Positions 1 through 44,500 are shown, counted from the whole stretch's first letter. The stretch is 57,822 nt of DNA, filler included, from Globobulimina sp. (GCA_003354225.1; 7 parts of 7 records of this genome joined end to end with filler, not necessarily neighbours in it); one strand, 5' to 3'. Numbers and translations are program-made. The notes: generated by a model not told the origin, from the letters alone.

Positions 1-45
1 TGTTTTTGAATATTTTTGGGACAGTTCCTTAAGAAATGTGGTCCC
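1..45. repeat. Terminal direct repeat, copy 1 (equals 8233-8277 with one mismatch, G8 vs T8240)
   Basis: tgtttttgaatatttttgggacagttccttaagaaatgtggtccc vs tgttttttaatatttttgggacagttccttaagaaatgtggtccc. Confidence 0.95.
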
Positions 46-772
46 CGACAATTATAACATTTTAAACCTTGTTTATTTCCAACATTATTTCCAACATAAT
101 TTCCACCATTTTTCCTACCATCATTTTCATCATTTTTCATTGTTATATCATTATCCTGCAAATCAGCCCAATTACTAACATTTCCAACATACAAAACCTT
201 ACATTCATCCGGTAAATTCTCAATTGCATACAACAACTTATCATCCGAACTACTATATTGCTTCCATGCGTGTGTAAATTCTGACGATTTCCAACTTACC
301 ATACCATCGTCCTCGCTATCTCTCCATCTATTTACATAGAAAGCAATTGATGTAACTTGCCAGAATTTGCTCGGAGTTATCATTTTATCATTTATCAATG
401 TAAATATTTGCGTTTTTGCGAATATTCTCATATCATTTATATTCCTAATGATTAATGAATATAATTGATTATATTTTACGTCCTTCGCCGAATACGACAA
501 TAATGCATCAATTGACCTTAAAGTCATGGTACTCCATAACGTATAAAATGTTATTTTCGAACCAATAAACTTTTTTAATGCCAACTTTATATTCGCCCCC
601 CAATTTAAGTGTATCTTCCAATTTTTAACCCACATAAACTTAATCAAATAAAATACGTCGCCATAACCATAGATCAAAAAATGTATATATTCTTTCAATG
701 CAATTTTCAATTCAGTTTGTTTTAATAGGTTAATACCATCATTTTTATTAATTCTATCATTCAACATTTCTC
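1..772 (-). CDS. Element 1 Gag-like exon 2, 5' part (continues across the contig join into 8232-7800); absent from the ORF track
   Basis: Manual translation is open from 800 to 1: EMLNDRINKND...KQGLKCYNCRGPHFLRNCPKNI. Acceptor ttttatgttgtttgtAG at 774-773. Confidence 0.8.
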
Positions 773-1143
773 CTACAAACAACATAAAATACAAATTAAA
801 CTAAAATCATTCATATACAAATCAGAACCAATCAACTTTATTTAATAAATAAATTCGAATATTTTTAAACTTTTTAACAACTTTTTTAAATGATATGCAT
901 ACAGTTTCATATGTGGTGTAAATAAAAATTATATCAACAAATTTTTATTGGCGCAATAACAAAGTTTACAATGTGAAACCTCTCATCATCATAATACTTA
1001 AAACAATATGACCAAACAAACACAATGCACGCTCGCATTGGAAACACAGTTTTTTGATTGTTGGACAGGGAAAGCGTTTTAAAAAAGAAAAATAAACTTT
1101 AAAAAGATAAAAAATAATAAAAACAGGGGTATATGATACATAC
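773..1143 (-). other. Predicted phase-1 spliceosomal intron (371 nt) in element 1 ORF1/Gag
   Basis: Donor GTATGT after gca acg a; acceptor tgtAG|ga gaa atg. Splicing gives an in-frame 800-aa protein. The unspliced ORF tail (MYHIPLFLLFFIFLKFIFLF) looks like translated T-rich intron. Confidence 0.7.
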
Positions 1144-2341
1144 TCGTTGCAATGTGTATCATCGCATTCCGCGTATCAACCGGCGTCAAATGCGGCTTCC
1201 TTAATATATCCCACATATTACTCGTGCTTTCCAGCATTAATTCATTCACCGCACCCATAGATCCTTTTGGACTAAAGACCTTTTTAAGATGTTCAATATC
1301 ATCTAATGACGGCTTATATTTATTGCCGCTGTTACCTAATCCGCGATTTTGTGCATAATTTTGTATATTCTCCATGGTATTCATCTGATATTGCTGCGCT
1401 TTACTATCTCTAATCTGCTTCTCCAATTTATTAATATACGATTTTAGCGTATCCGTGTTATCCTGGTCCATTCCTTGACCGACCTTCAAAATATCATCAA
1501 TCTCCGACCTCGTTACCTCGTCTATGTCACCCTCCTCTTTATCCATCTTCTCTTCTCCACCTCCACCACTTCTGGCTATATCTCTTAAACTGGCGGGCGT
1601 TTCAACTGCCTCTTCTTCCGAAGCTTTGGGCTTTGGCTTATTAAATGCCTCAAACTGCGATGCAACCCCACCTTGAAACGCCTGAAAAGCTGCCGCAGCA
1701 AAGCCCGACAATTCAGACAATGTAAAAATAGTATAAATTTCACACGGCTTTAAATTCGATGCCTTTCCCTTAAAAATATTCTTCGAATTTAAACCCAACG
1801 CCAAATCTTCCATTACCTTCGAGAAATTCCGCCGTAATTCAATTATTGTCTCCACCTCTTCGCTCACCAAACCATAATCGTCCAATCTACAATAATCTAC
1901 ATCTACAAACGTTAAATCATTCTCATCGATGCTTAAATTTATTGCAATTTTTTTATAGATAGTGTCCCATAGATCCCTCAATGTCAATAAAACATTAAAT
2001 TCTAAACAACTCAATACTTCTTTGAATAATACAACCATCAAAGTGGCCAACTTTTGTTTACGTGTCTGCTCATTCAATTTATTCTTATCAAACGACGTAA
2101 ACAAAACCCTAAATATCTCCGTAACACATTCACCCTCGACACCAATCATCATTGTAGCATTTGCAGTGTTGACAATATTCATGTCCCTATCTGCCGATTT
2201 ATTAAATGCTACATTCCATGCATATCCCGGAAATAATAATAACGTCGAATTCAACCAATCATTCAAATCCCTGATCTTCAAACCTTTCTGCATTGCCGTA
2301 GCCTTTTCCTTCGATATGCTACCAATTAAATTTAACGCCAT
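1144..2341 (-). CDS. Element 1 ORF1 / leader exon (399 codons); helical Gag-like N-terminal region of unknown family
   Basis: ATG at 2341 with an in-frame stop at 2351-2353 upstream; first ORF of the element. Unspliced, it runs to the stop at 1079. Confidence 0.75.
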
Positions 2342-2802
2342 CGTACGTAGTTATCTCTGACCTATCTGACTATTCGTCTGACTTTTAATGACAATTTTGT
2401 TTTGTTGCTAAGCTATTTTTTGCAACGACTTATTCTTATTCTTTTTCTTGCTCACGACACTATGCAAGGAAAAAGAAAGAAAAAATTCAAAACACAAAAA
2501 CGAAAACACTTTCAGTCAGTCACTTGAATTATCTTTAAATTAAATGAAACCTTCGTCGCTTACACAACGTTCTGTTTTATTATTAATTTATCGATGTGGA
2601 TAAAACAACATATTAATTTAAACTTAATTATTTATACAACATAATACATATTGACAATAACAACAAATACCTCAATACCAAACCTATACCAATCTCCACC
2701 TCGTCATTATCAAAATACAATATATTATATATAAATTAATACTAAATATACACAAATAACTCCACATCGTATAATAAAAACAGATTAAATCACCTACATA
2801 AA

Positions 2803-4254
2803 TCACCCCCCTCTCAGATCAATTTCATATTCACACAATCTCTCCTGATATGTGTTCATAAACTCCATCGAGAATTTTTCCTTATTATTGGGAAATTCTC
2901 TCACCAAATCACATTCTGCTGCATCCATATCAATGGCAATGTTATTTTTATTTCTACCATAGATAAAGATATTTGCGATACAAATTAAATCCCTCTGTCT
3001 ATGTATCAAATATCTATATATCGCAGCCGTTAATTTCCATCTTCCTGCGAACGCAATCAAACTCATTGTTACTCCCTTCTGTTGTAAGGTTGTCGCAAAA
3101 CCTTTCCTCAACCCATGAAATCTATATCTTTCTGGCTCCCAAAAACCCATTTCTTTTATTACTAATTTCCAATACTTTTTGATTGTTCGTAATTTGAAAC
3201 TTCTTTTAATTGGTTGAAAAACATAATAATTTCTCAAGCTTTTCTTATGTATCTTTTTTAAATCTCTTTTTTGTGTTTGATATATGTGATATAATATTAC
3301 CGCCGGATCAATTTTATTCTTTGTCCTGCCAATTCTTAACATTACATCCTTCCCTTTTGTCTTTCCTTTCGAATTTCTCAATCTTACTCGAACGTGATGT
3401 AGCTCATCGAAGGCAAGGGAATAAGCATTGCTTTGATATATTGAGAACATTCCATCATTCTTCCAATAAAAATCTAAGTCCGACAGATAAATGCCATAAC
3501 CAACATATGCTTTATTGGTATTTTCATAGCATTCTGCCCCCCTTAAACCTAAGATGCCTACGAAAAGAAGAGATATCGCAAACATATACCAAAATAACCT
3601 CTTGGTATCTGTCCAAATCTTCTTAAACGATAACCATTTACTTTTTAATTCCTTCTCATAATCCGTTAGCCTTAAACCTTTATACACTTTAAAGGCCAGA
3701 ATATATTTCACAATTTGCAATAAAATATCCGCAGTCACCGGCAAAGTATCTGATCCTTTCCCCGGATTGGTTTTTTTAACGTACTGCGTTAATGCAAATA
3801 AGGCCGGATTATCTGACCATGACTGAAATTCGCCACATAACTGCGCGACAAAATCAATAGAGCGATATTTCAACCTCATGGTCTTCCAACAGTTTACCTT
3901 CGCCTGCACCATACAACAATGTATCGTATATATCTGCAAGAAAGCATCCGGAGTTGGAAACGTCCAAATCTCTTCATCAGATAATCCTAATTTCCTCATC
4001 GTTTTCCAATAATATAGGAAATTCTGCATATAGGTCGATTCTGTGGTTACCTTTACCCCGCCATTCAGCGCCATATATAATAACTCTTTATAAATCGGAT
4101 TTATTTTTGACCAAATTGGATGATTATATTGTCTTCCTCTAACTATATATCTCAGACAATACAAACTATATATCTCAGACAAAAGTACCAAAATAAAACC
4201 TGTCCTACAATAAAACAAAAACAATGACACCAACTTTTTAGCACACAAAGACAC
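2803..4254 (-). CDS. Tyrosine recombinase of element 1 (real coding start may be the acceptor at 4142)
   Basis: Catalytic set present: LGLRGAE (R), LRNSKG (K), HGLRKGFAT (HxxR), GRW (W), IYRY (Y). N-terminal T..TY......W helix as in DIRS/Ngaro YRs. Confidence 0.9.
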   Translation of the reverse strand: MSLCAKKLVSLFLFYCRTGFILVLLSEIYSLYCLRYIVRGRQYNHPIWSKINPIYKELLYMALNGGVKVTTESTYMQNFLYYWKTMRKLGLSDEEIWTFPTPDAFLQIYTIHCCMVQAKVNCWKTMRLKYRSIDFVAQLCGEFQSWSDNPALFALTQYVKKTNPGKGSDTLPVTADILLQIVKYILAFKVYKGLRLTDYEKELKSKWLSFKKIWTDTKRLFWYMFAISLLFVGILGLRGAECYENTNKAYVGYGIYLSDLDFYWKNDGMFSIYQSNAYSLAFDELHHVRVRLRNSKGKTKGKDVMLRIGRTKNKIDPAVILYHIYQTQKRDLKKIHKKSLRNYYVFQPIKRSFKLRTIKKYWKLVIKEMGFWEPERYRFHGLRKGFATTLQQKGVTMSLIAFAGRWKLTAAIYRYLIHRQRDLICIANIFIYGRNKNNIAIDMDAAECDLVREFPNNKEKFSMEFMNTYQERLCEYEIDLRGG

Positions 4255-5069
4255 ATAAACTACACATATTGCTACCTACAACTATACACAAAGTCAGATA
4301 GTATCACTCTGTTATACTTATTATAGGCAATATCGCCATATTATATTAACTCATCATAGCACATTGACAATAAATGTATCTATATCATTTGGGTCGGCGT
4401 CCCTTGAACGTCTGTCGACCGCTTCTAAACGTCTGCCACCCAAATGATACGTAAATATATCTGTATTACAATCAAATCAAAACCAATGTAACTGACAAAT
4501 AATCAATGTCGTAATTGTCTATTTTGGCGCTGATGCCTTTGTATATTATTCTAAAATCATTATTTTGACACCAAATACCTTATGACGCCGTTATTAATTT
4601 CATACCGATATAATCACTCAATTTCAAAATTTTACTGATTAACTTTGCATTTTAGCCCATTAATCGCCAAAACTAACTGCAAATATTCAATTTAAAGAGA
4701 AATAAATCAAAACCGAATGATAAACATATAAAGAAAATCAATGTAAATTATTATACAAAGTATACAATTTTCAAGTTATTCAATCAAAACACGACTAATT
4801 TAATGCACAATATCATTTTAAACCAAATTTCAACTAATTCTCAATGCAAATGCTAAATCAGTCCGTCATTGCGATGGCAAACGACGTCAACAAAAACACA
4901 GCCCATTACACAAAATAATACTATTCATTTATTACAATAATATTCATTGTTAATACATTACAGATATCACATTATTGCATTAATCAAATATTATATTACG
5001 AATCAATATAATCAATATAAATGAATTGGGAATTAACATTAATTTGGATTACGAGGCAAAAATCATATA

Positions 5070-7225
5070 TTACCATTCATGTATGTTAGGAATCTGACAT
5101 TTTCTCGAAAAATCAGATAAAATCCATCCATTTCTCCTACATTTTTTCCTTGCCACTTTCAATAATGTTCTTATATCAAACCTTGAGGCTAAGTCAGGAA
5201 TTTTATTCGCCTTCGAATTAACATAATCAATATACAAATTTACCGATTGTTCGACGGCAAACATACAAAGCCAACGTACCCCGTCTTGTAAGAATTCATC
5301 GTCTGAATTTTTATTAATTATCACTGCTTCAACGTGTTTATTATCTGTCTTTAATAATATCTTTGTATGTGATTTAATCAAATGTCTAAATGTAAACAAT
5401 CCTATGATGATTGCCAACATTTCAAAATGTGCAATCGCAAATTCTTTAACATATTCCGTCCTCAATGATCTATAAACATTTGTAAATTCATTGGGCAAAG
5501 GGATTGCAAACCAATTGCCTTTGTACCAACAACCGATAGCCGGACACCATCCTAATTCACGACATCCATTCGTCGCCGCATCAAAATGTATTTCATCCTC
5601 AGGGTATATTGGATCAACCACATCAAAAATTGATGCTTTATTTATTAGTCTAATATACTTCTTCCACCACAATAAATCTAAAATTTGCCACCTTTCCAAT
5701 ATTATAATCACATTCTTCCTTCCATATAATTTAATATATTCATATAATTTATCTCTTAATCTCTTCAAAAAAGCCTTTCCCGGCCATTTTAAGCACGAAA
5801 AATCCTGCAATTTCCCTATAATTGATTCATATGTCTCTAACGGGACCACCTGATGTATCAAAACCTCATTTATTAACTCTTCAACTTTCTTAATTTTAAC
5901 TTCCTTCATTTGTACCAACATATCATTTGTGTTAATATCATAACCAATCATTTCTAAAAGAACTGCTGGTCCCTCTCTCTTCTTCTTCTTTTCAATAAAA
6001 CCTGCTTCCTTTATAAAACCACAAAATCGATCAAATATATTATCCGCGACTGCTTGCGATGGAGGAAGAAATAGCATATAGTCATCAACATAATTATTAA
6101 CGATCCCTTTCAATAATTGTTTACAACCTAATTTTAACTCTATTACTTTCTCAAAAAACTCTGCATTTTTAAATAATAAAAATTCTTTATTCGATAAAAT
6201 ATCCATTGCTCTGTGTATATTAAATGATAATAAATGGATCCCATCAAATAATAATCTATTTACAAATGACAATAATATATTTAAATTATTGTCCATCAAC
6301 CACCTCCTTACACAAATACTATTCCATTCTAATAACAACTTATTATCATAAATATAACTTATATTCTTTTCATTCATTTTTTTATTGCTTCCTTTATTAA
6401 ACTTTTTATGAAAGAATAATAAATTCCTTCTTTCAATACCTTCATTAATATCTTCCAATAACTCTAAACCATTTAATTTTATATTAAAATATCTACAAAT
6501 TAACTGTCCAACGTCCTGGGTATGTTTTGAACCAGATCTGGTTCCCCAGAAATCATAGAAATCCGCAACCAATTTTCCATCAAATTTGTATATGCAATTT
6601 TCAGGTTCAGTTATTGCTAAATATAACTGTCTAAACGCTGTCGCCAAATCTGTTTTGGCCAATTTAAACCCTGGACCCCATATCAAATACATTATATAAC
6701 AATATTTGCATATATCTAATAAATAAATTAATTCTATATGCGCCTTATGATCCGGAGTCAACATATTTAGCGATGGGTACTGTTCTGAACCTTTTGTACC
6801 ATCTCTTATAATCCTATATTCATAAATTTCTCCCGAGACTGGATCTACCACCTTCTCCCTCGTAAATAATGGAACGATACCATTTGGCTCTCCTAACCAA
6901 CCCACTGCTTTTCCTAAATTCATATTTCGCGTTAAATCCCTCGCAATCTCCATTCTACTCTTTCGATCCATAGTTTTTTCTGGATATGTCTCCTGATTTA
7001 ATTTCTTTCTCTCAGGGTTATCAATACCTATTTTCCAACCAAATTCTAAATTATTTTTCATTGCAATACATCTAAAACGATATATTACCTCTTCATTATC
7101 ACAACTCTCTATAAATGGGAGAATATATTGATACCAATACCATCTCTTTACATATAAGTCAGATACTTTATATTCCGAGTTTCTATATGCAATCCTAAAT
7201 TGTTCCATTATTATTTTCTCATTTG
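5070..7225 (-). CDS. Reverse transcriptase-RNase H of element 1, with an insertion of about 115 aa before YVDD
   Basis: RT motifs KTDLATAFRQL, FWGTRSGS, YVDDY, EMIGYDIN. RNaseH motifs FDAA, HFEMLA, KTDN, NKIPDLASR. The track start is TTG; acceptor tatatAG at 7227-7226. Confidence 0.92.
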
Positions 7226-7799
7226 CTATATACAAATAATTTGAAATATATATTTATAAACACGTACGTATAACTACTTTAACACCACATATGTTTATAC
7301 TGTTTCAAATAGAATTTTCGCCATAATTCTTTAAAATACATTCCGTATTTTGCAACCAGCTCAATTTTAAATCTCTTTTGCTTCCATACCAAATTCTCTT
7401 CCTTTTAATATAAACGCACTTTTAATAAAAAGTGTAACTTCAACGAAGAGTGGCAAGGTAAACAAAACACATTTTTTCTGTGCAACTCAATGTATTTAAT
7501 AATAATTAATACAAACGGAGTTTAAGTTTACTGCAGATTTTAAAATCATATTCAAAAATACCCCTTTTTCTTTTTCACACAGATAAAAACAATTAATTAT
7601 TATATTAAATCATTAATCTTATTATAAATCATTCAAACACAAATAATAAACATGCATCATTTATCATTATTATATTCAACTAAACCAAAAATATATCAAT
7701 AATAATCATAATAAATGCCAATATATTAAATGCAACCGTATCAATAATAACATTAATATTCATTTTATTAAATATTAAATATTCAAATTTAAAACATTT

Positions 7800-8277
7800 C
7801 TATGCTCCACGACCTGCAAAACGTTTTAACTGCGCATTAGGACATTCATACGCAGTGTGTTCATTTGCTAGGCCACATCTTTCGCAATAATGTGGATAAC
7901 CGCATAATAAAAAGTTGTGCCTAAAATTGCATCGTTGATGCCTCTCTTTCCAGAAATAACACGCCGGATCACCATAATATTTCTTTTTAATAAAATAATT
8001 TCCATTGTTCAATTCATATAAATCTTCACCTCTTTTTTCTCTCTTTGGCCCTCTATTTCTCTGCGCCACCGACGTATTATCATCACGATCAAATCTTACT
8101 TTCTTTGGAGGCGGAAAATACGGATTACGATTATACTGCGATTGATTCGATGGCGACTCATAATGACTTCCTTCATTCTTTTCTCTCAATCTCCTTTTTA
8201 ATTTTTTATTATTCCTCACCAAATTCTTATTGTGTTTTTTAATATTTTTGGGACAGTTCCTTAAGAAATGTGGTCCC
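7800..8277 (-). CDS. Element 1 Gag-like exon 2, 3' part, with CCCH finger and CCHC knuckle
   Basis: CYFWKERHQRCNFRHNFLLCGYPHYCERCGLANEHTAYEC. The frame is open up to the contig end (GPHFLRNCPKNIKKHNKNLVRNN). Confidence 0.85.
8233..8277. repeat. Terminal direct repeat, copy 2 of contig 1
   Basis: 44/45 identity to 1-45. Confidence 0.95.
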
Positions 8278-8377
8278 NNNNNNNNNNNNNNNNNNNNNNN
8301 NNNNNNNNNNNNNNNNNNNNNTTAATTAATTAANNNNNNNNNNNNNNNNNNNNNNNNNNNNNNNNNNNNNNNNNNNN
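8278..8377. other. Artificial contig linker (N run, TTAATTAATTAA, N run); also at 16603-16702, 24916-25015, 33195-33294, 41425-41524 and 49631-49730
   Basis: Identical 100-nt spacers carrying stops in all six frames. Confidence 0.99.
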
Positions 8378-8496
8378 CAAAAAGTTGAAGAGAAGTTTTT
8401 GTACACACTTCAAAAAAGATACACACTTTTTTGACAAACGCACACAACACCAAACTTAAAATAATTAGATCAAAATGAAATGTTAATATAAGTTAT
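8378..8496. repeat. Exact 119-nt terminal direct repeat (equals 16484-16602)
   Basis: caaaaagttgaagagaag...gttaatataagttat is identical at both contig ends. Confidence 0.97.
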
Positions 8497-8913
8497 TTCA
8501 AGTTGGTATAACGTGATGACCACTTTATTTATATTGACAAACGGGAGAAATAAATTAAAATTAACAATATTAAACTATTTGGTTGGTAGAAATAAACCAA
8601 TCAATAGTATTATTTTATGATACAATAAGACATAAAATATAATAAAACCCCGTTGCCCGTAGGTTAAAATTTTTGCTTTATAAAACCTGTGGCCGTTAAA
8701 GGAATTTATAAAGGAGCTTTTTGCGGAGATATAAAATTTTTGAGAGGGAAACAAAACCCAAACTCAATAATAGACACACAGAACAAAGGCAAACTTATAT
8801 GCAAAGGTGCCATATTAACACCGCATTGGAATTGAATCACTATGGGGAGTTTACACAAATTTGGTTATACTTTATTGTTTTTCTAAGAAAAGAGAGAATA
8901 TATTTGTATATAT

Positions 8914-10130
8914 TTACCAATGTTTATATTCAACATTATTTGCCCATGGATCATATATACCGCCTATATTTTGGTTGCGATGTAAGGTATTAAGTCCGTT
9001 ATAATTATATCCATGGATTAGTTCTTTAATAAACGTTGCTAACATGATTTCAGTGTAACACATATATCTATAAGATACATGTGGTAAATTGTTGGGTTTC
9101 CAACCAACATATTTTAATATTTTAGGATGTGGTATATGATTATTACTGCCTAGAGAAGAACCGCCAATTCTAAAAGCATACGAGGTATATCTCTCTGGCT
9201 CGGGTATTCTATTAATTATTGTTATCTCTTTTGCAATTTCACCTAAGTCCGAGACTACAGCATCTTTATTATTTTTGAATCTTAATAAATTTACTTTTTT
9301 GTTTATAGCAAAATATTTATTCTGCAACGCATATTTATAAGTTCTGTCTAAGTAAATACTTAATAATAAATAGGGATTTATATAGTTGCAGGGACAGTGT
9401 TTATTTGTATTTGTAATATACTTATTTCCACATCGCGAATCGCCAATTATTACTTTTTTAATTATACTTTTAAATTTTTGATTTTTGTATGATACTACCA
9501 TTAATTTGAAATACCAATCTAATTTGTTCGGAGCTGTGTTTATATGGAAGATATTTTCTAATTTAACTCCGAATTTGGATTTACTTGATTTATTCAGTAA
9601 TAATTCGCATGGTCTTGACATTGTGCAGAAGTAAATTTGTGCAATTAATACTTTTAGTAATTTATCAATGTCAATTGAAGCCAAATGACTTCCATATGCT
9701 TTATATAATTTTGTATATTTAATTAAATGGGATAACTCGAATGGGAGTCTGCTTTCAGCCTCTTTCCAGTATTCAATTTTTAATCCTTTCTTAAAATCAT
9801 CAAAATCTATGTCTGTTTTCCATTCGGTATTACCACCGCATAGTTTGCACAGCCAAATCAATGTTGATTGCCATGTACAAATCGATTGGACACTTCCTAA
9901 TTGGAGTGCTCTCTCAGAGAACCAATATGTTACTGTTAATGGATCGATTGGCATATTAAAAGGGTCTTCATCGATCAGTGCGCAATATTTCGACCAGTTT
10001 CTTAAATTTGAAATATAATGAATTTTAGTGAGATGTACTTTATCTCTGCTCCTAATTTTTTGAATGTGTAATGTATTTTTTACGTCTTTTGGAGCAATAC
10101 GATTCGAAGCTAAACGCTTATGAAAGAATT
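8914..10130 (-). CDS. Tyrosine recombinase of element 2
   Basis: TKIHYISNLRNWSKYC N-terminal helix, TMSRPCEL (R), SYKN (K), YAFRIGG (Y in place of H in HxxR), VGW, SYRY. The track start is GTG; acceptor gtgttAG at 10132-10131. Confidence 0.88.
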
Positions 10131-10808
10131 CTAACACATACACAAATATTTAAAAAATAAAAAATAAAAATAAATTTGATTGTTTGCAATAAATTTTGAT
10201 TGTTTGCAAAATATTTAAAGTATATAAAAAATAGAAAGACAAAAATGATAAACAATAATGCCCAGAACGATTAACAAAAGACAGAATTAAAAGTGTAATT
10301 GTTTAAAGCTTGTTGGGTTTCATTAGGGTTTCGAAGGTTTTTTAAGAATTAATATTTAGCTCGGAACGTTTTTCAGTCACTTTGCTTCCCTACATCAGGG
10401 GAACTCGACTTCGAGCAAAGAAACAGAAAATATAATTGCTCATTTTGTCAAACACCAAAGAATTTTAGGTCTGAGCAGACCAAGAAACCTTTAAAAATTG
10501 GATAAACGTTTATATTGAATATAATATTAACACATTAATAGAATTAATTTAAATATGAAGGAATCAACGAAAATTAACATAGGGATTAAAAATCAAGGCA
10601 TTATCATTGGATTGATGATAATATTAAATTTAGAATTCATTTTAAGCGATTTTAATGACAATAAAATAGTGATTCAAATATATTTAACATTTATTTATAC
10701 GAAATTAATGTATACAAATTTATTTATTATAGTAAAGACAGAGCATTTTTGGGAATGCTGAATCTTATTTGGAATTCAATCACGAAAACAGATCGAGAAT
10801 CAAATAAT

Positions 10809-12613
10809 TTATATTTTCATATAACATTTGTACGGCGAAATGGCTCTTATACTCAATGGTTGTTTTAACCATTTAATAAAATTTGCATATTCATGCATAT
10901 CATTTTCATAATTCATTTGCGGATTATTTGCAAATTGGTATCTACCGAAATAATCAGGCTTCGTTTCAGCTAATTTTAGATTGAATGTATTACATAATTC
11001 GCTAAATTCTAACATTTTGAACCTAGATAGTCGATCTGGTAAGAAATTAAAAGCAGATGGAAGCCATACAAAATGTACATAAATTTTGTATTTTATCATT
11101 AATAAACATAATTCAAATACGAATATCATCATATTATAGGACGAGGACCATTTTCTAACCATTGAATAGTAACATGATGCATTATCAATATATAATTTTA
11201 AGGTTTTTCCTGTTAATAAACGTTTATGGGACTCAATCAATGTAAGGACGCAATGGGCCTCTTTTTGATTTATGGACAGATTTAAGTCATTTTTATTGAA
11301 TTTATATTTTGCGAATAATGAATCAATTACATATCCAGCACCTTCTTCGCATGCATCAGTTGCCGCAAATACATTAATTGACGGATTATTTAAGATTGTA
11401 TACATTGACACAATTTTTATGTTATCAATCCATTTCAGCCAGAAACGTAAATCATTTATGACTGAAATTGGTAATATTATGCCATCCAATTTATTTATTC
11501 GACCATTTCGTATATTTTTATGAATGTAAGCCAATGATCTGTAAGCTAAGGCTTTTGTGGCTTTGTTTAACTGGCTCCAATGCATTATTTTGCCAGTTAA
11601 TGATTCTAAGGCGCGACCTGTGACAATTCTGTATTTTATAACTAATGAAATAAAGTATTTTAATCTTTTTAAAGCTAAATCAGGTATTTTTAATGTTTTA
11701 TTTATTAAATTCCAATAAATACCGTAAATGACACCTTTTCTCACATTATCCACAGATTTATGCTCAGAGACTTTTACCTTTAATTCACGTAAGAGATTAT
11801 CGAACAAATTTGTTAATAAAATACAGTCAGATTTGGATTTTGCAGCAATTACAAAATCATCAATGTGGACTAATATGGAGTTTATCAGATGTTGCTGTTT
11901 TTTATTTAAAATGCAATTATTAAGAATCCACACTAAAATGGTTGAGAAATATTGGGAGTTACCAGGGGCTGACGAGACACCGTATGGTTGGCTACGATCT
12001 CTGAAACGTAGACCAAATATGGAGTAACCAACAAAATCTGCATCACTTTCAGGCAATTTTATTTGTCTGAAAAAATCAGCTAAATCACGTAACGACATAT
12101 ATTCATTATTTATTAATAACTTTGTGTATGTTTTCAAGTTAGGAAGGTCTCTCATATTGCATTTTTCTTTGCGAATCCATTGATTTATTGCTGTTTTGCC
12201 GGATGCATGAAATGAGCCATTACGAATGACTCTCGTTTTGGTATACAACCCAAATTCATCTTTTTTGGGTGTACCAAAAATCATTAATACATATTTTGGA
12301 TCGTAATTAATAGGCTCAATTTGGCCTTTCTTACATTCTTCAGATAATTTATCGATAAACGCAGTAATATCATTTTTAGAGCATATTGAATTGTTGATTT
12401 TTGTTGAGAGGTTCGAAGGTTCCCAACCTTTGTTATGGAAGGATTTCCATAAAGGAAAGCCATTTTCAATGAAATGAATTTCTAATTTGCCATTTTGTTT
12501 GTTTTTAAGGTATTTCCTGAATGCATTTATATTGAAATGAAGTTTGTTTTTATAACCTTCGGCATGCAATGTTTGTAAATTTTTTACTTTTACAGATAAC
12601 GAAGGATCGATCA
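10809..12613 (-). CDS. Reverse transcriptase-RNase H of element 2
   Basis: RT motifs FIENGFPL, IFGTPKK, RVIRNGS, LRDLADFFRQI, QPYGVSSAP, HIDDF, IYGIYWN. RNaseH motifs ATDAC, NQKEA, YIDN, NFLPDRLSR. The track GTG start is the G of a cAG acceptor. Confidence 0.92.
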
Positions 12614-12939
12614 CTGGTTTTTTTTAGTGTTGACAGAGCAGAAATTATTTACAGATAAAGTATTTTATACAACAAACAAATGCAAAGATTAACATAAATA
12701 TTAACTTTACATTGAGCTAATTTAAAGGTTTGTAAATATTAAATAATAAATGTTGGGAAAAAAGTAAACAAAAAGTTGGAAAATTTAAAGGAAGGTTTGG
12801 TAGAAATGAATAAAAAATTAGTAAATTAGTATGAAAATTTAATATTATCTGTACAGAAATATCCAGATAAAAATGTACCGCAAATATCAAAATTTTATAT
12901 AAATATAATAATGAATATTCATACAAATGATATAATTGG

Positions 12940-13985
12940 CTAAATTTTGTCGCAATTCATTAATGGATGATCTTTATTATCAATAATACAAATATGAGCT
13001 CTCGGGCAATTATCGCCTAATCGACAATAATTATAAGCATTATAGAAGCAGCAATATTTGCTTTTTAATGAAAATGCTGTGCCAGTTTTTGCTAATAAAT
13101 TTTGGCACACTTTTTCGGCCGCTTTTGGATTTAAATTACGATTCTTTTTGGGAGGTTCATTGTGTTTTTTATTTGGATTATTATTATTTGATTTATCCAT
13201 TTTATTATTATAGTTCGTCGGCCACGTTTTTTTATGTTGGTTGTTGTAATTATTTTTATCCGGAAATATTACCTGTTTTTGATCATTATTTGTTTTTAAT
13301 TTATCCAAAATTAGCGCATCTTTCAATACTTGTAATACATTATTTGATTTATCATAAAATTCAGATTGATCGTAATATAAAAATGTGGATGATAATAATT
13401 GATCTAATGTCAATTTTGATTTTGTTGCAATTTGGGATTGCATGAAATTCGATGAAAATGTAATATAATAAGAATTATTTCTATCCAATGCATGTTTTAT
13501 TCCTTTATTTATCCATGAAAATAACGAAGAAGGTGAAACTCGAATATTTTTAATTAATGGTAGTAATAATTCAGAATATTTTGATAAATCAAACATTTTA
13601 TATGCACAGAAAATTCTAATTGTACGAAAGAGTAAAGATTGATCTGTATCCGCTGGAATTATTAAGCTTAAACTGTCTGAAATTAATTTGATAAATGACA
13701 ATATATAATTATTAATATTTACAGCATTCCATTTGTTTACAAACAGTGATTTAAGTTCTTTTGACATTGATTGGTGATCAATATTTTTAATGTTTGGATT
13801 TAAATATTTGAATATTTTATAATACAAATCATAAATACTAAATTCATCTGATACATAACCGCTGAAAAAGAGAATTAATTCAATTTTTACTGCAAACTTA
13901 TCATTTTTGGTTATTATATTTTTAATTTTTGATGAATTTGATGGGGAATATAATTTAATAATATTTTGTAAATTAAAGTTGCCAT
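12940..13985 (-). CDS. Element 2 Gag-like exon 2 with C-terminal CCCH finger and degenerate knuckle
   Basis: Frame open from 13995; CCFYNAYNYCRLGDNCPRAHICIIDNKDHPLMNC; acceptor ctttgttcAG at 13987-13986. Confidence 0.8.
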
Positions 13986-14215
13986 CTGAACAAAGTTAAA
14001 ATTCACAAAACTAACAAATACACATTGTAAATAGGAGAGAATTGCGGTTGTTGTATAATATAAATGAAATTGGAGACAATGGAGAATTTAATAATAAATT
14101 CAATCGTAAGAAGTGGTCTTTTATCACAGACTAAGCGCCAGAAAGCATTAAAAATAAACCAAAGCCGTCGCAAACATTATAAAATTTGGAGAAAAAGAAA
14201 TAAAAAGGTATTAAC
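13986..14215 (-). other. Predicted phase-1 intron (230 nt) in element 2 ORF1/Gag
   Basis: gaa a|GTTAAT ... ttgttcAG|at ggc; joining gives an in-frame 1066-aa protein. Confidence 0.62.
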
Positions 14216-16370
14216 TTTCTAATTCTGTTAAAACGTCGTTGTTTGTAATACGAGTGCCCGATGGGGTATATTTTGTATTTAATAAGGTATTTAATTGTGT
14301 AATTACTTTGTTTTTTCGTTTTGCGACGACTTGGTCCACCATTACGACAATGGGATCTTGTTTTTTTTGTTTATCTATTATAAATCCTGTGATTTTGTTT
14401 GTATTTACAGATTCCAGACATTCAACGGTATTCGGATCATCATTATTATAATCAAACTTAGGTTTAATTGCATAATTTAAGCTGTCTTGGATTCGTTTGT
14501 TTTCGTCGAACTTCTGCTGAAATTCACGTGATATCTCCGTGCGAAGTACGGCTAAATCAGCAGCAGTAATTGGTTGCGGATTATGTTTATTAATTGGATT
14601 ATTTATATTATTTGATTTGTGTTCAAATTTATTTGGCGCTAAATTTCTTTGAGTCGCAGTACTGTGTACATTGGTGATTTGTGGATAAGTAACACTTTGT
14701 TGTGTTCTTTGTGTATTGGTGCTGTTATGTTGTGTGTTATTCGTTGGATTTCTCATAATTTGTGTATTCTGACGATTTTGTGCTGTGCTGTTTAGTCTCC
14801 TTCGTTTTAAGGGAGGTTCGAAAGTGATGGGATTGTTGGAAAAAGCGTTGGTATTTTTGTTGGGGGAATTATTAGAAAGTAAACCATAAGGAATTAACCT
14901 GTTTGATAAAGTGGTTATATATTTGTTTAAGTTTTTAATATTGCGATATTTGTCAATTATTCCTGTATCCAATAGGTTTTTGGTGACAGTAGTTAACATT
15001 TTAGGATATAAGCGATTAAATTGCAAATCATTTAAGTTGCCGATATATTTAATATAAGCTTTTATTGTGCCGTGTTTATTTGGGGGAGTATTTACGTCGA
15101 AATCAAAAATAACTATATTTGCAATTATCGCTGTTAAAATAGATCCGATATTGGTTTGGGAATTGTAACTATTTATTTTATCCATTTTATCTGCTTCAGT
15201 TATCAATGAATTCATGAAATTATTGAAATTATTTTCGTTGTCATCTATCATCATTTGGTATGGGTCTTCTTTTCTTAATAGATTCGTTATGGAATTTGCC
15301 GCAGTATCCATTGAAAATAAATTGTCTAATTTTGAAGGAATAGTTGGTAAATTTGGAAGGCGGGGCTGTATATTTGAAGTAAAATTATTATTTGTTGGTG
15401 ACGTAGTATTTAAAATATGATCGATTGATGATTGTATATTTCGTGGTTTATTTAACACCGTGATACTCGGAGTTTGATTTTGATTTTGATGAATCGGGGG
15501 CGGTAAATTCACAGTAGAATTATTATTATCATTAAAGCTTACACGATTTTGGTTATTTGAGGTTAATTCAGCACCATTTTCAGATTTGCTGTTATGATTT
15601 TTTTGTATTGGACTTAACGTGGAAGATAATTGTGAGGGTAATGATGTTTGTAACCCTTTGTATAAAGCTAAGCAATCAGTATTTATTGCATTTGCTTCAT
15701 TTTGTGATTCAGACGTATTTTTTATGATTTCTTGTATTGATTTGGAAGATAAAGAATCTAAATAATGTATACAATTAAATTGACGTACATCGGAATATAC
15801 GGCAAAGCTGGCGGTTTCTTTGAATTTTTTAATTTGATCTGCTTTGAATTCGGAGCATGATAAGTAAATTAAGTCAGAAAGATTCCGGACTTTGGCTGAA
15901 GAGTCCCTGTTGGCTCTAATATAGCAATTTCTTAGGAATAATTTCAAGGAATCTAATAATGAGCGAGATGATGTATTTGTGAACCAAATAAAATTATTAT
16001 TTACTTGGGCATAATATAAAAATAATAAGATTTCACATTTATTAAAATATAAGTCTGGTTTCGATGGATCTGGTTTTTGATTAAAGGATGATTTAAGTAT
16101 TGCTTTACCAAAGCTTACTTTCCAATTTTTCATGGACATTTTCTTGATATCCTCTTTATCCAATAAATCCATAAAATTATCGAAATGTAATGAGCTGTAC
16201 GGAGTTGAAGCCACTATTTTTTGGATTTTATTATCATTATTTTTTGTTTCTTGTGCTATGCTATGTGTTTTTTGTGTATTGTTATCTCTTTTATTTTTGT
16301 TTTTATTGACTTTTGGTTGATAACCTTGTTGGAATAAATTGCTTTTGTGTGGTTTATTTGTTTTATCCAT
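14216..16370 (-). CDS. Element 2 ORF1 / leader exon (718 codons); N/Q-rich, with NLS-like PPLKRRR
   Basis: Long ATG-initiated ORF preceding the zinc-finger module; unspliced stop at 14211. Confidence 0.78.
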
Positions 16371-17246
16371 TATTAAATTGCAATAATGATTTGTTTCAAA
16401 CTGTTGTTTGTTATTTGAGTTTGGTTTTTGTTTCTTATTAGGTTTTAAGTTTTTGCAGCGTTATCACGTTAGAGATAGAGAAGCAAAAAGTTGAAGAGAA
16501 GTTTTTGTACACACTTCAAAAAAGATACACACTTTTTTGACAAACGCACACAACACCAAACTTAAAATAATTAGATCAAAATGAAATGTTAATATAAGTT
16601 ATNNNNNNNNNNNNNNNNNNNNNNNNNNNNNNNNNNNNNNNNNNNNTTAATTAATTAANNNNNNNNNNNNNNNNNNNNNNNNNNNNNNNNNNNNNNNNNN
16701 NNAACTTGTTAACACAAATCTATTGGTCGCGTCATGGTGTAATACAAAACGTTTCATTCTCTCCTTTCCTGATTGCAACCAATAAAAAATAATGGTTCAA
16801 CATGAACAATAAAAAAATGGGCTTGCCAGAAACATATATACCAATTTCAAATTCCACACATAAATGATCATAAAATCATCATTTTCATGTAATATCATCG
16901 TTTATATCCTTTATAATTGTCATTTCTATCATTTATAGTTAATGGTAATAGTGGATGGTTGATGATTGATAAGCAAACAGATACACCTTGTGGTAGTTTC
17001 ATTGTGTTGTGGCAGAATGAGGAAAAAGTCAATGTTGTCAACCTAACGTAAAGTTTTTTCAAAATAATCTACTCATCCTTAAAATTAAAAAAACATTTTT
17101 ATACGATAACTCAAGAAGAATGAAATTACTTCGAAGCCTAATTTCGTTACAAATTGAAGGTATAATTTATTAGGTACATCAACCGATACATGTACATCAA
17201 AATGTATATCAACATATAAAAAGCTCCAAATGAAACCTGTGTTGAT

Positions 17247-19997: not shown

Positions 19998-22004
19998 TTA
20001 ATAATCATCATCAACAATGAAAGTTGGCATCGTATGTTTCCTTAATTTATGCTCCTCATCATCAACCATTGTGGTCTCCAAACAATCCTCAGCCGATTCA
20101 TCAAAGCCATCCTCCTCCGAACTGCACACATAATAATGTTCCGTATCCTCATTATTCTTCTCATCCTCCCTCGAATTATAGTCATCCGGATCCAGCAATT
20201 CGTGCTCCGTAAACGGTTTCAATTGCAACGACTGTGCACCTCCAAAATGTTTCGCCGGTACACCATTCACAACATCGCGCATACTCTGAGACTTAAACAT
20301 GCGCAGATCCACAGCCATCAATATATTGCCAGACAACCGTTTGTCGCAAACATCGCCCTCTCGCACCTCCTCCTCATCGTTTATAGCCAACAAATGTTCA
20401 TCGACATCCATAACCAACCTCGGCTCTGCAGACTGAGCCTTATAATTTATGTTATTTTCTACAAGTTCAACTTCCTTCTCCTCATAACTCATATTCATAT
20501 TTTGTAACTTGGTGCCGGTGCCTGTATCGATAATAAAAAATATCATAAATTAAAATAAAAATGTACCGTATACGTACCGTCAGAGAACAGACAGTTTTGT
20601 TGAGCTGAACTGGTCCGTATGCCCTTTCGTGTGACTTTCATAAACGATTGACACCAAAATAACAGCTCAGTGGCTTCCGCCGCGCCAAAATACCACTTTC
20701 CAACAGATGTGGTGACAGTGAATATTTTGAGCGATTTTAAGAGCTGTTCCGTTGCAGAATATTTATATTTCAATTTGTTGTCAATTTGATGCGACGATAT
20801 CTTCTCGATTTGAGGGTCAGTCATCGGGATGGATTTATGCACATATTTATGAAAAGCAATGTTATAGTAATCATCCGTCGAATATATACTGTCCGCAAAC
20901 TCAGTGCAAAGCGACTCGCTTTTTAGTGTAAGCAATGCAAAGGGGGTCAATGCAAAATATGACTGCTTCCAATATTTGACATCCTCTGCACGGAAATGTA
21001 AGTAGCCTTGGCATAGAATACTGATTTTGAATGCATTCATAGTGAAATAAAAAGAATCCATAAATTCATCCCTGATTTGCTTGCTCTCTGCGCTGAAAAC
21101 ATGAATTAAATTACTGTTTGTATCATATATTTCGATCGGATATGGCATGGATTGCTTTTGTCCATATTTGATGACAGAGACACAATGATGGTCGATGTCA
21201 ATTTGCTGTTTTACTTTGGTTTTTTTATGATCTTTATAAATGCGAATGATTTTGCTTTGATAAACTTCAATGAAACGTTTTTTCCATTTTGTTTTTAATT
21301 TTTTTTTGGTTTTTCTGGTTAAATATCCATTCAAGATTAACTTGCCAAAGATTGCATACTTTAAATGTATGATCCATTCGTTTAATTGTTGCACATTTGC
21401 ACAGTGTAGCCAATAGGAGCGTTTTTCTGTCATTATATCAAAAGCATTGCGTTTATTGCACACTGAACGGGTATTTATCGGCGCATCGACATAGACATCG
21501 CAATTTATGTCAGCGGTTGACTCATTTTCAGGTGTTTCGATATTGGGTTCATGCTCGTGATCCTCATCGGACGAATCGAAATTACTGCTCAAGGTATGAT
21601 TGGTGGGAGTGGTGATATTGTCATCATCGTTTTCTTTTTCTTTCTCTTTTTTCAAAATAAACATATCTGCAAATGATTTTGCACGCGATTTGCGTTGTTT
21701 TGTGGGAATATTTGAGTATGGCAGAAGTGATAATTCTTTTACGGTGGATAAGTTTATCTCGTTTATGGGCGCTAAATGTGTGATTTCTTTACAGGTATAA
21801 TATGCTAATTTTTTATCTGAAAATAATATGAAGTATCTATTGAATATTGGTGTTGTTTGTGTATGACTGTATGTTGCTGATAAACGGTTTGGTGTACCTT
21901 TTCTTCCAAGATCGGTGGATTTTTCCTTTTTTGTTAAGATATCCTTCATGTAGGACATCCCGAGAGTTTTCGTGGTCTGATTGCTGTTCAGGTTCTTCTG
22001 CCAT
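19998..22004 (-). CDS. Multi-PH-domain protein (3 PH domains); exons 22004-21898, 21836-20578 and 20521-19998
   Basis: Removing the 61-nt intron 21897-21837 restores HEGYLNKKGKIHRSWKKRYFIL. Further PH starts are LNGYLTRK..WKKRF and CQGYLHF..WKQSYF. A 56-nt GTACGT..ACAG intron (20577-20522) joins the acidic tail in frame. Confidence 0.8.
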
Positions 22005-24915: not shown

Positions 24916-25018
24916 NNNNNNNNNNNNNNNNNNNNNNNNNNNNNNNNNNNNNNNNNNNNTTAATTAATTAANNNNNNNNNNNNNNNNNNNNNNNNNNNNN
25001 NNNNNNNNNNNNNNNAAA

Positions 25019-33194: not shown

Positions 33195-33403
33195 NNNNNN
33201 NNNNNNNNNNNNNNNNNNNNNNNNNNNNNNNNNNNNNNTTAATTAATTAANNNNNNNNNNNNNNNNNNNNNNNNNNNNNNNNNNNNNNNNNNNNTACATA
33301 CAGTGCAAGGATAATGTATAAAGGTGTTTCAAATTATAATATGCGGGTTTCCTTGAAGTGGTAGCTGAAAAACTTAAAAATACGATCCATCGTTATTTTG
33401 AAC

Positions 33404-41049: not shown

Positions 41050-41528
41050 TTGCTTTGTTTGTACAAAAAGATAACAATTATATAGGTCTTCAACATGCAA
41101 TATCAATTTGTAAGATGTACAGTATTCAAATGTGATATGTGTGAATTTTTAAAATTCTTTTTGACTGTCAGTCTTTCAATGGATTTTTATATGTTTATGT
41201 TTATCTGTTTAAATTTAATTGCTCGCACCGATAAAATCCGATAAAAAACAATGATCAACTCTTCATCTTCAAAAGTGTCAAAACACCGTTAAGTGCGCCT
41301 AAAATATGATAATCCGGATCCACACATTTGTCACGTTTTGTTTTCTCCAGAAAATATTTCCCACTCTGCCTATTACATCTCCTATGCCAAGATCCATGTT
41401 TATGATGCACTAAATGTTTCCAACNNNNNNNNNNNNNNNNNNNNNNNNNNNNNNNNNNNNNNNNNNNNTTAATTAATTAANNNNNNNNNNNNNNNNNNNN
41501 NNNNNNNNNNNNNNNNNNNNNNNNTTAA

Positions 41529-44500
41529 ATGTCGACATGGAAAACATTATCATTGACAGCGAGTGATAATTTAAATAATATCAATGCCAACAAAGCCGTC
41601 GATTCGAAAGGTGGCGCCATTTACGCTTCGTGTATTACACACAATTTATCCATTACACTCACCGACATCTCCGATGCGCGGAGTATTATCGGTGGCGCAG
41701 TCTTTTTATATGAAACGCCTTCTATTTCTATAACTGCCTCGCAATTCAGCTCCAACCAAGCAATTTTAGCTGGAAGTTGTATCGCGATTTTTACGCCGGG
41801 TGTCATCGATAGAAATATAGACATTTTCGATGTAGAATTCACTGCAAACCCAGGCGCTGCATTAGGTGCCACGATATACATTGGTTCCTATCGTGATATT
41901 ATACTATTATTTGACGGCAATGGTCGATATTTTGAGCCGCCTTTTTTGGACGTATGGGACTTTGAGGATTTCCTGGCACTCGAGATTGAGAAACGGCACA
42001 TTACCAAATCAACGGAAAACGTATTTACATTTACGAATAATAAGTATGCCGAGCAACTATTGAGTATGTCGCGCATTATTATTGACCTTAATATAGAATC
42101 GAATAATAGTTATAACACCGATGCGGTATTTAGTGGTACTCCGCAATGGAATGCTTCGGACGCGTTGTTGTATGACGCCGCGGGGGACAGTCAAGCTTGG
42201 ATTGACAGGCAGAGATCGTTTGGGAATGTGATATTTTTGCAAGATGCGTATGGCGCGGATGAGATGAATACAATTAATATGTACGAAGGCAGTGAGTATA
42301 CATTTAAATTTGATGGCGATGCGTGGACAGACGCGTTGGATAAAAGTACAAGCAAAAATATCACCTTTCGATATGATATGATTGGCTTGATTCAGAATGC
42401 ATATTATGACGATGAAGGAGTGATTAATATTGATATCGACCACTGCACATTCACGCAAAATGGCCATGATGTCCACTCTGTGATTGGTAATGTTTACATT
42501 GACGATCCCTACGGAATTGCCAGTGTGTCCTCTACGGATAATGATTTTATATTAAATTCGGCCAAGGTTGGTTCAGCATTGGTACATTTAGCGGGTTATG
42601 GTGTGAAGGACAGTAACCCCATTGATTTAAGTGCAAACAACGAAGATGTTATAACAAATTGTAATTTTATCGACAATGTCGCGACGGATACAGGCAATAT
42701 CGTTATACACAATGCAGATTTGAGCTTTGTAGACAGTCTATGCAGCAAAAATAAAGCTGGACTCGATGGCAGTTGCATTGCGACCTATTCCTCGACATTG
42801 GAGGTCGCAAATGCTGTGATTGAGACGTGTATTACGCAAGTTTCTGGCGCAATATATACAGATTTGTCCATAGTCAGAATACAAGGTACTAATTTTACAA
42901 ATAACATAGCTGATTTTGGTGATGGATCATGTATTTATTCTAAACGAATGATCCCACTCATTTTAGGCGACTGTCCATCATTTACATTCGAAGCACTGTA
43001 CGAACAATTTTCAGATACAGATACAGCAACGAATGAGTATCTATTCTCCGTTGCGGACTGTTTATTTGATAACAATACCGCCTACACTGGCTCTGGCGGC
43101 GCTATTTATGTCGGCACAGATTATGATAGAGATTTACTATCAGACAACGCAACCTGTACTGGCTTAAGACAACAGCTCAACGAAGCTGCAGCAGCAAACA
43201 CTGGGAGACGGTTATTACAATTTAATGATACAAACAGTACCATAAACGGTTCCATTATGACCACCTCCCTTCCACTTATAAGCACCACTCAATTCTTTGT
43301 ACCTACCACACCTTCGCCAACCACGGAAGGTTGCATTAATATCGATATTGTGCCCGATGCTCATTTGTCGGATATAAGCTGGACATTGACCGGCTTGGAG
43401 GTCGATGGCACGGTCACTGGGCAAACATCCGGTGTTGGACTGCCTCAATTATGTCTAAATAATACATATAATGACAGTTGTTTGGAATTTACCATTGATG
43501 ACAGTTTTGGTGATGGCTTATCGTATGGAGAGGGCACATGGCATATTTCATGGTATGGTGAAGAATGGAGCTCTGTGTCGAATGGCAACTATTACCACAG
43601 TGAAACCTTTCAATTTTGTAAATCGTCCGTGTTTCTGCAGGAAGAGTCGGCCGTTATTGACATTGTAGTGTCGATTGTGGACGATACAGACTCATTGGAT
43701 TTTGTTATTGCGTTCTTAGATGACATTACACCGATGTTTGAGGATAGAATCTCCAGTGATTTGGTGTTCTCAAACATTTTCAATGGAGACGTGAATACTG
43801 TGATTGGCATTAACTTGGAAACAATGTGTATCAGCAATGGCGAGTCGCCTATGTATTGCAGTACTGATGGCATCGAAGCAATTATCGATGCATTGGCTGT
43901 GTTATGTATTTGGAACTCGACCAACGACACTTTGCTGGAGGACTTCCAAGATTATTGGGGCGGTATTAACGGTTCTAATTTATCAGTAGTTGCAGACGAA
44001 TCTGTCTCGTTTGCCTTTTTGAAAATGAATTGCGATTCGGTGGAGTTGAGCTATGACGATATTGACAAAGAGTACACGCTGAGCTCTGGCGCAGAATTAC
44101 TCGACAAAACGTTTCAATTTTTTGACCACAATGAAGATGACATCGACGAGATCCAAGGCAGTCTCCCTCTGATCGGCAATGTGAGCATCGCAGCAACAAA
44201 CGATTGGATTTATATTTGGGACTATGAGAGTCAGGATATTTGCCAATTTTATGCAGCTAATACGCAAGTGATTGAATTAATTTGTAACACGATCGAGTTT
44301 AATGTGAATATAAAGCCTGGTATTTGCCAGTATGACTCGTGTATAGCGCAGCATTGCACTGCTGACACTGTCGTAATTGTATACAATTCCGTATCACAAG
44401 TGTTTTTTGAAGAGGATGCACAGTCAGTTGCATATAACACCGGTCCGACTTCGTATGAACTGACGGATTTAGAGTTTGTACCCATTGGCGAGTATAGTTT

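Follow-up and report, generated by a model that had tools for sequence, protein, structure and literature searches.

Candidate splicing from a shared ORF1 donor in Ngaro-like tyrosine recombinase retrotransposons of a Globobulimina assembly

Two retrotransposons with four separate frames

We analysed a stretch of 57,822 nucleotides (nt) from a Globobulimina sp. assembly (GCA_003354225.1), referred to throughout as the window, which contains two retrotransposons that each encode a tyrosine recombinase (YR) and whose open reading frames (ORFs) are separated by stops. An initial annotation had proposed that their first frame, ORF1, is a leader exon spliced in a single phase onto each of three downstream modules. 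The window consists of seven contigs, sorted by length from 8,277 down to 8,092 nt and linked by Ns; the artificial linkers, N44-TTAATTAATTAA-N44, are unstranded and 100 nt long (8278-8377, 16603-16702, 24916-25015, 33195-33294, 41425-41524 and 49631-49730). Element 1 is contig 1 (1-8277) and element 2 is contig 2 (8378-16602), and because these are separate contigs glued by a linker, the elements are not neighbours. Every element frame lies on the minus strand, in the order ORF1, zinc-finger Gag, reverse transcriptase (RT)/ribonuclease H (RNase H) and YR, and all four are intact in element 1, in element 2 and in a complete relative from metagenomes, L002.

The ORF1 exon of element 1 (1144-2341, minus strand, as are all element features below) opens with an ATG at 2341-2339, comprises 399 codons plus one base and has 1144 as its last base. 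It abuts a candidate hub 5' splice site in phase 1, a/GTATGT (1138-1143; the slash marks the exon boundary), past which the frame continues for 21 T-rich codons to a stop at 1081-1079. A predicted intron 1 of 371 nt (773-1143), ending ttgtttgtag, leads into the Gag exon, whose first part (1-772) continues at 8232-7800 through the overlap of the contig ends; a CCHC knuckle sits on the overlap, and the Cys/His-rich C-terminal part (7800-8232) closes with a stop at 7802-7800. The RT/RNase H frame (5070-7225) follows the acceptor tatatag (AG 7227-7226) and has its own ATG five codons downstream. The YR frame (2803-4142) follows atatatag (AG 4144-4143), which is not the first AG past the stop: a 23-nt tandem duplication (4141-4186) copies this acceptor, leaving two candidate AGs, at 4143 and 4166, in different phases. 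The predicted introns to Gag, RT and YR measure 371, 2150 and 5233 nt, and the joins to RT and to the C-terminal part of Gag require closure of the contig via a 45-nt overlap.

In element 2, the ORF1 exon (14216-16370, ATG at 16370) is of low complexity and comprises 718 codons plus one base, ending in the motif NNDVLTELE. Its candidate hub 5' splice site, a/GTTAAT (14210-14215, phase 1), contains a TAA stop and is the positional homologue of the donors of the related loci L002, L005 and L008. Predicted intron 1 (13986-14215, 230 nt) has a ttaac 10 nt before its end, ttgttcag, and is followed by a Gag exon with a CCCH zinc finger (12940-13985; first ATG at codon 76). The RT/RNase H frame (10809-12613; first ATG at codon 113) follows the acceptor aaccag (AG 12615-12614), and the YR frame (8914-10130; first ATG at codon 65) follows gtgttag (AG 10132-10131), giving predicted introns of 230, 1602 and 4085 nt to Gag, RT and YR. 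A 20-nt tandem repeat occupies 10172-10211, 40-80 nt upstream of the YR acceptor.

The splice-site coordinates of the initial annotation proved exact on the minus strand, and all eight sites are in phase 1: the donor G is 1143 in element 1 and 14215 in element 2, and the AGs end at 773, 7226 and 4143 (element 1) and 13986, 12614 and 10131 (element 2). When joined in silico from the first ORF1 ATG, all six products were in frame and had no internal stop, reaching 800, 1117 and 845 amino acids (aa) for element 1 and 1066, 1319 and 1123 aa for element 2. Five of the six acceptors, all except that of element 1 YR, are the first AG after the in-frame stop, as had been claimed; a caveat to this count is that the stop preceding element 1 Gag is TAG and itself carries an AG.

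Pfam matches to these frames were weak yet coherent (RVT_1, RT_RNaseH, Phage_integrase and zf-CCCH). Element 2 RT matched RVT_1 at E 1.1e-7 (32.2 bits, cut-off 29.6) and RT_RNaseH at E 7e-4, element 1 RT matched RT_RNaseH alone and under the cut-off (E 1.2e-3), and the Phage_integrase match for YR was sub-threshold and confined to element 1 (E 3.7e-5, 24 bits against 27.1). Catalytic motifs were clearer in alignment: the HIDD/YVDD and D..E..D..AD.LSR columns were invariant across 18 aligned RT/RNase H sequences, and the YR motifs SRPxE, YKNQ, (Y/H)xxR(I/K)G, VxW and xRY aligned in all complete members. No aspartic protease or DDE integrase matched in Pfam at E up to 0.1 in nine ORFs, a Pfam scan of the ORFs found no methyltransferase domain, and an Rfam scan of 1-16602 was blank. 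The Gag zinc finger is of the CCHC type in element 1 and the CCCH type in element 2, and the two RTs share just 19-23% identity. Judged by layout, with RT plus RNase H and a YR and with neither protease nor DDE integrase detected, these are Ngaro-like YR retrotransposons of approximately 8.0-8.2 kb.

The ends of all three full-length contigs overlap. Positions 1-45 of contig 1 recur at 8233-8277 with one mismatch (period 8232), contig 2 repeats 119 nt exactly (period 8106) and L002 closes on itself through a 119-nt overlap; such overlaps would be expected alike from collapsed split direct repeats, a tandem array or a circle. Apart from these overlaps, no direct repeat of at least 20 nt was a fit for a terminal repeat. 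Exactly at its closure, L002 has a 26-nt imperfect palindrome (7990-8044; 85% complementary, 3-nt spacer), which could represent abutting short inverted termini. Similarity between element 2 and its near-copy L001 begins sharply around 100 nt upstream of the ORF1 ATG, at AACGTGATAACG, and the preceding 540 nt of L001 (1-540) are unrelated; this abrupt boundary may mark where an integrated copy starts on its 5' side. A non-coding motif, CGGGCAAnnGGGGTTTTAT, lies around 100-250 nt past the YR stop and is kept in three lineages: element 2, where it is duplicated (8642-8660 and 8680-8696, minus strand, downstream of YR, with the form ACGGnCAnnGG(G)GTTTTAT), L002 (~7806-7830) and L012 (after 4861). 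It could be a recombinase or priming site.

Relatives were plentiful. The element 2 RT found 45 of them in a protein collection, at 30-92% identity and on contigs of 2-11 kb, and a metagenome scan yielded 15 related loci, all with the layout of ORF1, zinc-finger Gag, RT/RNase H and YR and with stops between ORFs, bearing out the earlier view of the layout as a lineage-level trait. ORFs in the family are 66-930 nt apart and the loci range in GC content from 29% to 62%. L001 is around 85% identical to element 2 at the nucleotide level in the ORFs (92% in RT protein) and has degenerated: its RT is frameshifted and half of its YR is deleted. A third lineage is represented by L002, a complete element (RT identity 43%), and the remaining loci are partial. 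Mapping run X1 on element 2 returned 308 contigs at 85-100% identity, indicating a multicopy, diversified family. Among the joints listed from X1 contigs, none of 15 matched a predicted intron and would represent a spliced DNA copy (two more joints lie outside that list, and contigs drop rare forms). The search for fused Gag-RT or RT-YR forms without an intron gave one weak match (E 3e-4) among 5555 longer-protein candidates, 44 pattern matches among viral contigs contained no relatives, and a protein atlas search with RT retrieved generic RVT_1 clusters only. ORF1 evolves very fast: save for its last ~9 residues, no similarity was detectable between lineages, and the search for homologues of element 2 ORF1 found that of L001 only. 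A fold model of element 1 ORF1 residues 1-250, built from four sequences, had a mean pLDDT (predicted local distance difference test) of 37.9 and was unusable.

Translation and candidate acceptors upstream of the first ATG

In the family, RT and YR homology sets in only a few codons past the in-frame stop, with no ATG ahead of it, and the first Met falls at codon 39-137 in most members. The first ATGs of the element 2 frames (codons 76, 113 and 65 of Gag, RT and YR) lie past residues conserved in relatives, in line with the annotation for RT and YR. Between the acceptor and the first ATG, differences between element 2 and L001 at codon positions 1, 2 and 3 numbered 4, 3 and 21 in Gag (72 codons), 7, 6 and 28 in RT (109 codons) and 4, 0 and 9 in YR (58 codons). 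This third-position bias equals that in the rest of the ORFs, whereas the spacers had no periodicity (8/6/9, 31/22/15 and 27/32/42). By this measure of selection, translation of Gag, RT and YR starts ahead of every ATG in their frames. The case against initiation at an internal ATG is weakest for element 1 RT, which could instead use its own ATG and to which we return below.

We then considered how these frames are entered. Phase agreement in the two window elements is weak evidence and not significant, because phase 1 accounts for 45% of the AGs inside these AT-rich ORFs (778/1727) and not for 33%. Across the family the picture sharpened. We scored 30 ORF starts, leaving out L001, the split Gag of L008 and starts cut by contig ends, and the first AG past the stop was in phase 1 at 23 of the 30, or at 25 when the AG of TAG stops was ignored, against 13.3 expected from each ORF's own body (P 2e-4 and 5e-6, respectively). 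The annotation had called for relatives to be checked for acceptor position and phase; a phase-1 AG occupied the same alignment column at all 11 YR starts (within 1-2 columns for the distant L006 and element 1), among them the starts of L011 and L013, both GC-rich, whose frames stay open for another 23-28 codons upstream. RT starts form two groups, each flush at its own column, and in the L002/L012 pair protein similarity starts precisely at the acceptor AG in Gag, RT and YR.

The bases around these AGs also differ from controls. For 26 acceptors chosen by phase and alignment, the -3 base was C or T in 24, compared with 36% of 2926 control AGs; CTAA occurred within -50 to -6 in 8 of the 26, compared with 7% of controls; and the pyrimidine content of the 15 bases before the AG was 0.59, compared with 0.45. 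Omitted from this set were the RT acceptors of L001 (a duplicate) and of L010, L011, L014 and L015 (uncertain column), whose -3 bases are C, A, C, C and C, respectively. RT and YR are likely to be entered through splice acceptors.

The ORF1 donor and competing explanations

The few conserved residues at the end of ORF1 are followed by one base and a GT in four lineages: NNDVLTELE a/GTTAAT in element 2, NKDLVNKVE g/GTTTAT in L002, NRDLVDELQ g/GTAAGT in L005 and GKDCLKEVQ g/GTACGT in L008. All four GTs are in phase 1 and the frame closes 0-24 codons later; two of the lineages, L005 and L008, have a consensus-type donor (GTAAGT or GTACGT), and their first ~50 intron bases are alignable, including a second GTGAGT. 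NGT codons make up 2.4% of element 2 ORF1, and the last codon is among them. As read from these alignments, a phase-1 donor at the end of ORF1 is conserved in four lineages of the element-2 group. It is probably conserved in a relative of element 1 as well. Element 1 ORF1 had three weak matches among 1.84 billion protein representatives, one of which, P0049 (25% identity), is colinear with it and ends ..ASM, one codon beyond the donor-homologous position; that ending would fit A/GTATG followed by a stop.

At the DNA level the candidate introns have the hallmarks of spliceosomal GT-AG introns: they begin with GT and finish with YAG, their removal keeps the frame, and their positions are kept among relatives. 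Intron 1 is also constrained. Element 2 and L001 differ by 9.5% in intron 1, 15.5% in the RT-YR spacer and 21.7% in the Gag-RT spacer, against 27% at third codon positions, and L002 (~2675-2745) and L012 (1-75) share a conserved block within intron 1; these comparisons point to constraint on the non-coding parts, as might be expected of sequences that control splicing, packaging or recombination. The ORF1-to-Gag junction is very probably a real intron. In L005 and L008 a further short GT..AG intron (66-68 nt) is predicted within ORF1 and leads to the terminal exon; that of L008 (GTATGT..ctaac..acag, with a branch-like ctaac) is in phase 1.

Candidate partners for the RT and YR acceptors other than the ORF1 donor fared less well. 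No conserved phase-1 donor was found between lineages at the Gag and RT ends, and the last 45 codons contain no phase-1 GT in L002 Gag or in the RT of L002, L007, L008 and L009. A local mini-exon is excluded for YR in L002 and L012, whose RT-YR spacers (66-82 nt) are free of ATGs. The mini-exon donor GTAAAT upstream of element 2 RT is not kept in L001, and the mini-exon with a 58-nt intron that the annotation had offered as an alternative for element 1 RT had no counterpart in relatives. An RT-to-YR splice at a GTAAGT overlapping the L003 RT stop would join a phase-2 donor to a phase-1 acceptor, out of frame. Only L005 had a short ATG-N/GT leader exon (ATGA/GTGAGT, within a stretch rich in Ser and Glu); the 5' regions of elements 1 and 2, L001 and L002 lacked one. 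With the Gag and RT ends, mini-exons, the L003 GTAAGT and a leader all failing, the ORF1 donor is the only conserved partner, and the identical phase at three acceptors is what a shared donor requires. The case that this donor serves RT and YR is thus one of elimination and phase.

We therefore favour, at a probability of about 0.5, a reading in which a single hub donor is used with three alternative acceptors. ORF1 would alone among the four genes have a start codon, and the full-length, unspliced transcript would serve both as ORF1 mRNA and as the template for reverse transcription, unspliced RNA being the presumed copied form because introns persist in all copies. In alternative splicing events, the phase-1 donor closing ORF1 would pair with one of three phase-1 YAG acceptors, which directly precede the zinc-finger Gag, RT/RNase H and recombinase modules, to yield three proteins with a common ORF1 N terminus. 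Speculatively, the common ORF1 part might draw each module into the particle in an element that lacks a protease; the notion of ORF1 as an assembly domain is conjecture. A broader formulation, that a widespread protist YR retrotransposon family replaced the Gag-Pol polyprotein and protease by hub-donor splicing and that conserved intron 1 carries signals keeping RNA unspliced, is put forward tentatively and falls slightly short of even odds. The comparison partly supports the scheme originally annotated, through translated frames without start codons, conserved phase-1 YAGs, a conserved ORF1 GT and the lack of conserved donors for serial splicing; that splicing occurs, that RT and YR use the ORF1 donor and that the scheme sets stoichiometry or packaging are its predictions.

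The rest of the window offers some view of host genes. Contigs 3-5 contain eukaryotic genes (protein kinase, PH and RasGEF) at 33-40% GC. Contig 6 has a 2222-aa frame with Chlamydia-PMP repeats (E 4.8e-8), and a second frame of 2000 aa lies in contigs 6-7 (41525-57822), both contigs having a GC content of around 44%; these frames look bacterial, and the assembly appears to mix organisms. The sole readable host intron, in contig 3 (~20549-20605, minus strand), is 57 nt long, has the form GTACGT..ACAG and links two frames of the PH-domain gene. The short ORF1 introns of L005 and L008 resemble it in size. Judged from this single example, host introns may be short.

Several observations weigh against hub-donor splicing. 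The predicted introns to RT and YR span 1.6-5.2 kb, compared with 57 nt for the only host intron seen, and permanent fusion of enzymes to a fast-evolving ORF1 of 400-720 aa with no encoded protease to release them would be odd. The extra L005 intron is in phase 0, showing that family introns are not all in phase 1; the donors of element 2 and L002 have a T at +3 (GTTAAT and GTTTAT), unusual for U1-type sites; and many NGT codons within ORF1, Gag and RT could be used as other phase-1 donors. It takes the whole family to lift the phase pattern above chance, and there the loci are related (some share a record series with L001), such that trials are not independent and their number exaggerates how many separate cases there are. 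For ten of the 26 acceptors the choice followed the alignment column and not the first AG, the T-rich tract of L002 was noticed during picking, and the element 2 RT acceptor is preceded by an A-rich and not a pyrimidine-rich tract. The weakest point of the splice claim is element 1 RT, with its ATG five codons past the acceptor and homology to its nearest relative, L015, starting after both first Mets.

An explanation that retains the acceptors is that the ORF1 donor is spliced to Gag only and that the RT and YR acceptors, although real, are paired with other donors in Gag, RT or small exons, producing chimeras such as Gag-RT. Only shared phase links the genuine-looking acceptors to one donor, short introns appear to be the host norm, and donor-like phase-1 GTs are available at L002 Gag codon 299 (GTATGT), L005 Gag codon 304 (GTGAGT) and element 1 RT codon 663 (GTATGT). 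However, no internal GT is positionally conserved between lineages, use of the codon 663 donor would remove the conserved C-terminal motif of RNase H, L002 lacks a phase-1 GT near the end of either Gag or RT, and the mini-exon donor before element 2 RT is lost in L001. A common phase at three acceptors, expected with a shared donor, would otherwise not be needed. We regard this pairing with other donors as unlikely.

Alternatively, RT and YR could be translated from unspliced RNA, by non-AUG initiation, an internal ribosome entry site (IRES) or termination-reinitiation, with the phase-1 YAG being incidental. Phase 1 is indeed the commonest AG phase in these ORFs, the split codon is GCN (Ala) at 4 of 11 YR starts and GTG at element 2 RT, and such codons recall the non-AUG starts at some viral IRESs. 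This model does not account for the excess of YAG over controls or the enrichment of CTAA, or for an AG held at one column even in GC-rich members; no near-cognate codon is consistent, the spacers range from 66 nt to 0.9 kb with stops in all frames, and the same features recur at Gag, where a matching donor lies 230-640 nt upstream. Translation without splicing is, in our estimate, improbable.

A leader from the host or elsewhere, ending in AUG plus one base and trans-spliced to the acceptors, would explain a single phase at every acceptor across hosts of 29-62% GC; some spliced leaders end in AUG, and several acceptors share an ACAG/ motif. Against this, ORF1 ends in a conserved cis donor of the right phase, no leader gene was seen and Rfam was blank over 1-16602, and many different hosts would need the same leader phase, making trans-splicing highly improbable. 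That the copies are dead relics, and the pattern chance compounded by post hoc donor choice, is scarcely credible: L001 is decayed and the phase match in the window elements alone is not significant, but the frames of both elements and L002 are intact, substitutions are clearly third-position biased, acceptor enrichment is family-wide and the X1 family is multicopy and diversified.

Relation to known retroelements

If hub-donor splicing is correct, a retroelement would here express its proteins and adjust their balance by a new means, without frameshifting, readthrough, a polyprotein or a protease. Alternative splicing would be the sole route to Gag-nucleocapsid (NC), RT and recombinase and would place a common N-terminal tag on all three. 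The fragmentation of these elements by gene callers into ORFs lacking start codons would be explained as well, and the question would arise of how intron-containing RNA evades splicing and nuclear retention in the hosts. The prediction is sharp, comprising six exact junctions for the window elements (1144 to 772, 7225 and 4142; 14216 to 13985, 12613 and 10130) and homologous ones in relatives. Our literature search, whose scope did not extend to the classic DIRS/Ngaro reviews, found no YR retrotransposon with natural alternative splicing.

Retroviruses use one major 5' splice site with alternative acceptors and keep unspliced RNA as the genome; in avian sarcoma-leukosis virus (ASLV) the donor is just inside gag, such that env shares the AUG and the first few codons of gag. 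The predicted scheme resembles this in having one donor, alternative acceptors and unspliced genomic RNA. It differs in that the donor ends an ORF of 400-720 codons, the whole of ORF1 would be fused, and the targets are Gag-NC, RT and recombinase rather than env or accessory genes. In foamy viruses, Pol is initiated at a start codon of its own rather than being fused to Gag, and neither frameshifting nor readthrough is involved. Passages of two sources describe this Pol as made from spliced RNA (PMC3705302, PMC7828637). The likeness lies in a polymerase from a spliced subgenomic RNA; here, by contrast, RT lacks an ATG and an N-terminal fusion is predicted.

Among YR retrotransposons (order DIRS) is DIRS-1 of Dictyostelium, in which the ORFs overlap, a methyltransferase-like domain is encoded and the inverted terminal repeats are accompanied by an internal complementary region. 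Artificial marker introns are spliced from DIRS-1 transcripts before copying, in an account whose excerpted text mentions no natural introns (PMC7192593). The elements described here share with DIRS-1 an RT/RNase H and a YR, but their ORFs are 66-930 nt apart and separated by stops, no methyltransferase was matched, and the sole inverted-repeat candidate is the L002 palindrome. Ngaro elements are defined by direct repeats in a split arrangement, A1-[ORFs]-B1A2B2, together with a YR in place of an integrase (PMC8547959). The order of Gag, RT/RNase H and YR and the lack of protease, DDE integrase and methyltransferase are Ngaro-like, whereas the extra large ORF1 before Gag, the ORFs parted by stops, the missing start codons of Gag, RT and YR and the predicted introns set the present elements apart.

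Splicing that adjusts the output of a retrotransposon has a precedent in Ty1/copia elements, where, according to one report, it gives rise to a gag-only RNA in Arabidopsis EVD and Drosophila copia (PMC5580714). Both there and in the scheme proposed here, splicing would set the ratio of products; in Ty1/copia, however, it removes pol and over-produces Gag, whereas in these elements it would be the only path to Gag-NC, RT and YR.

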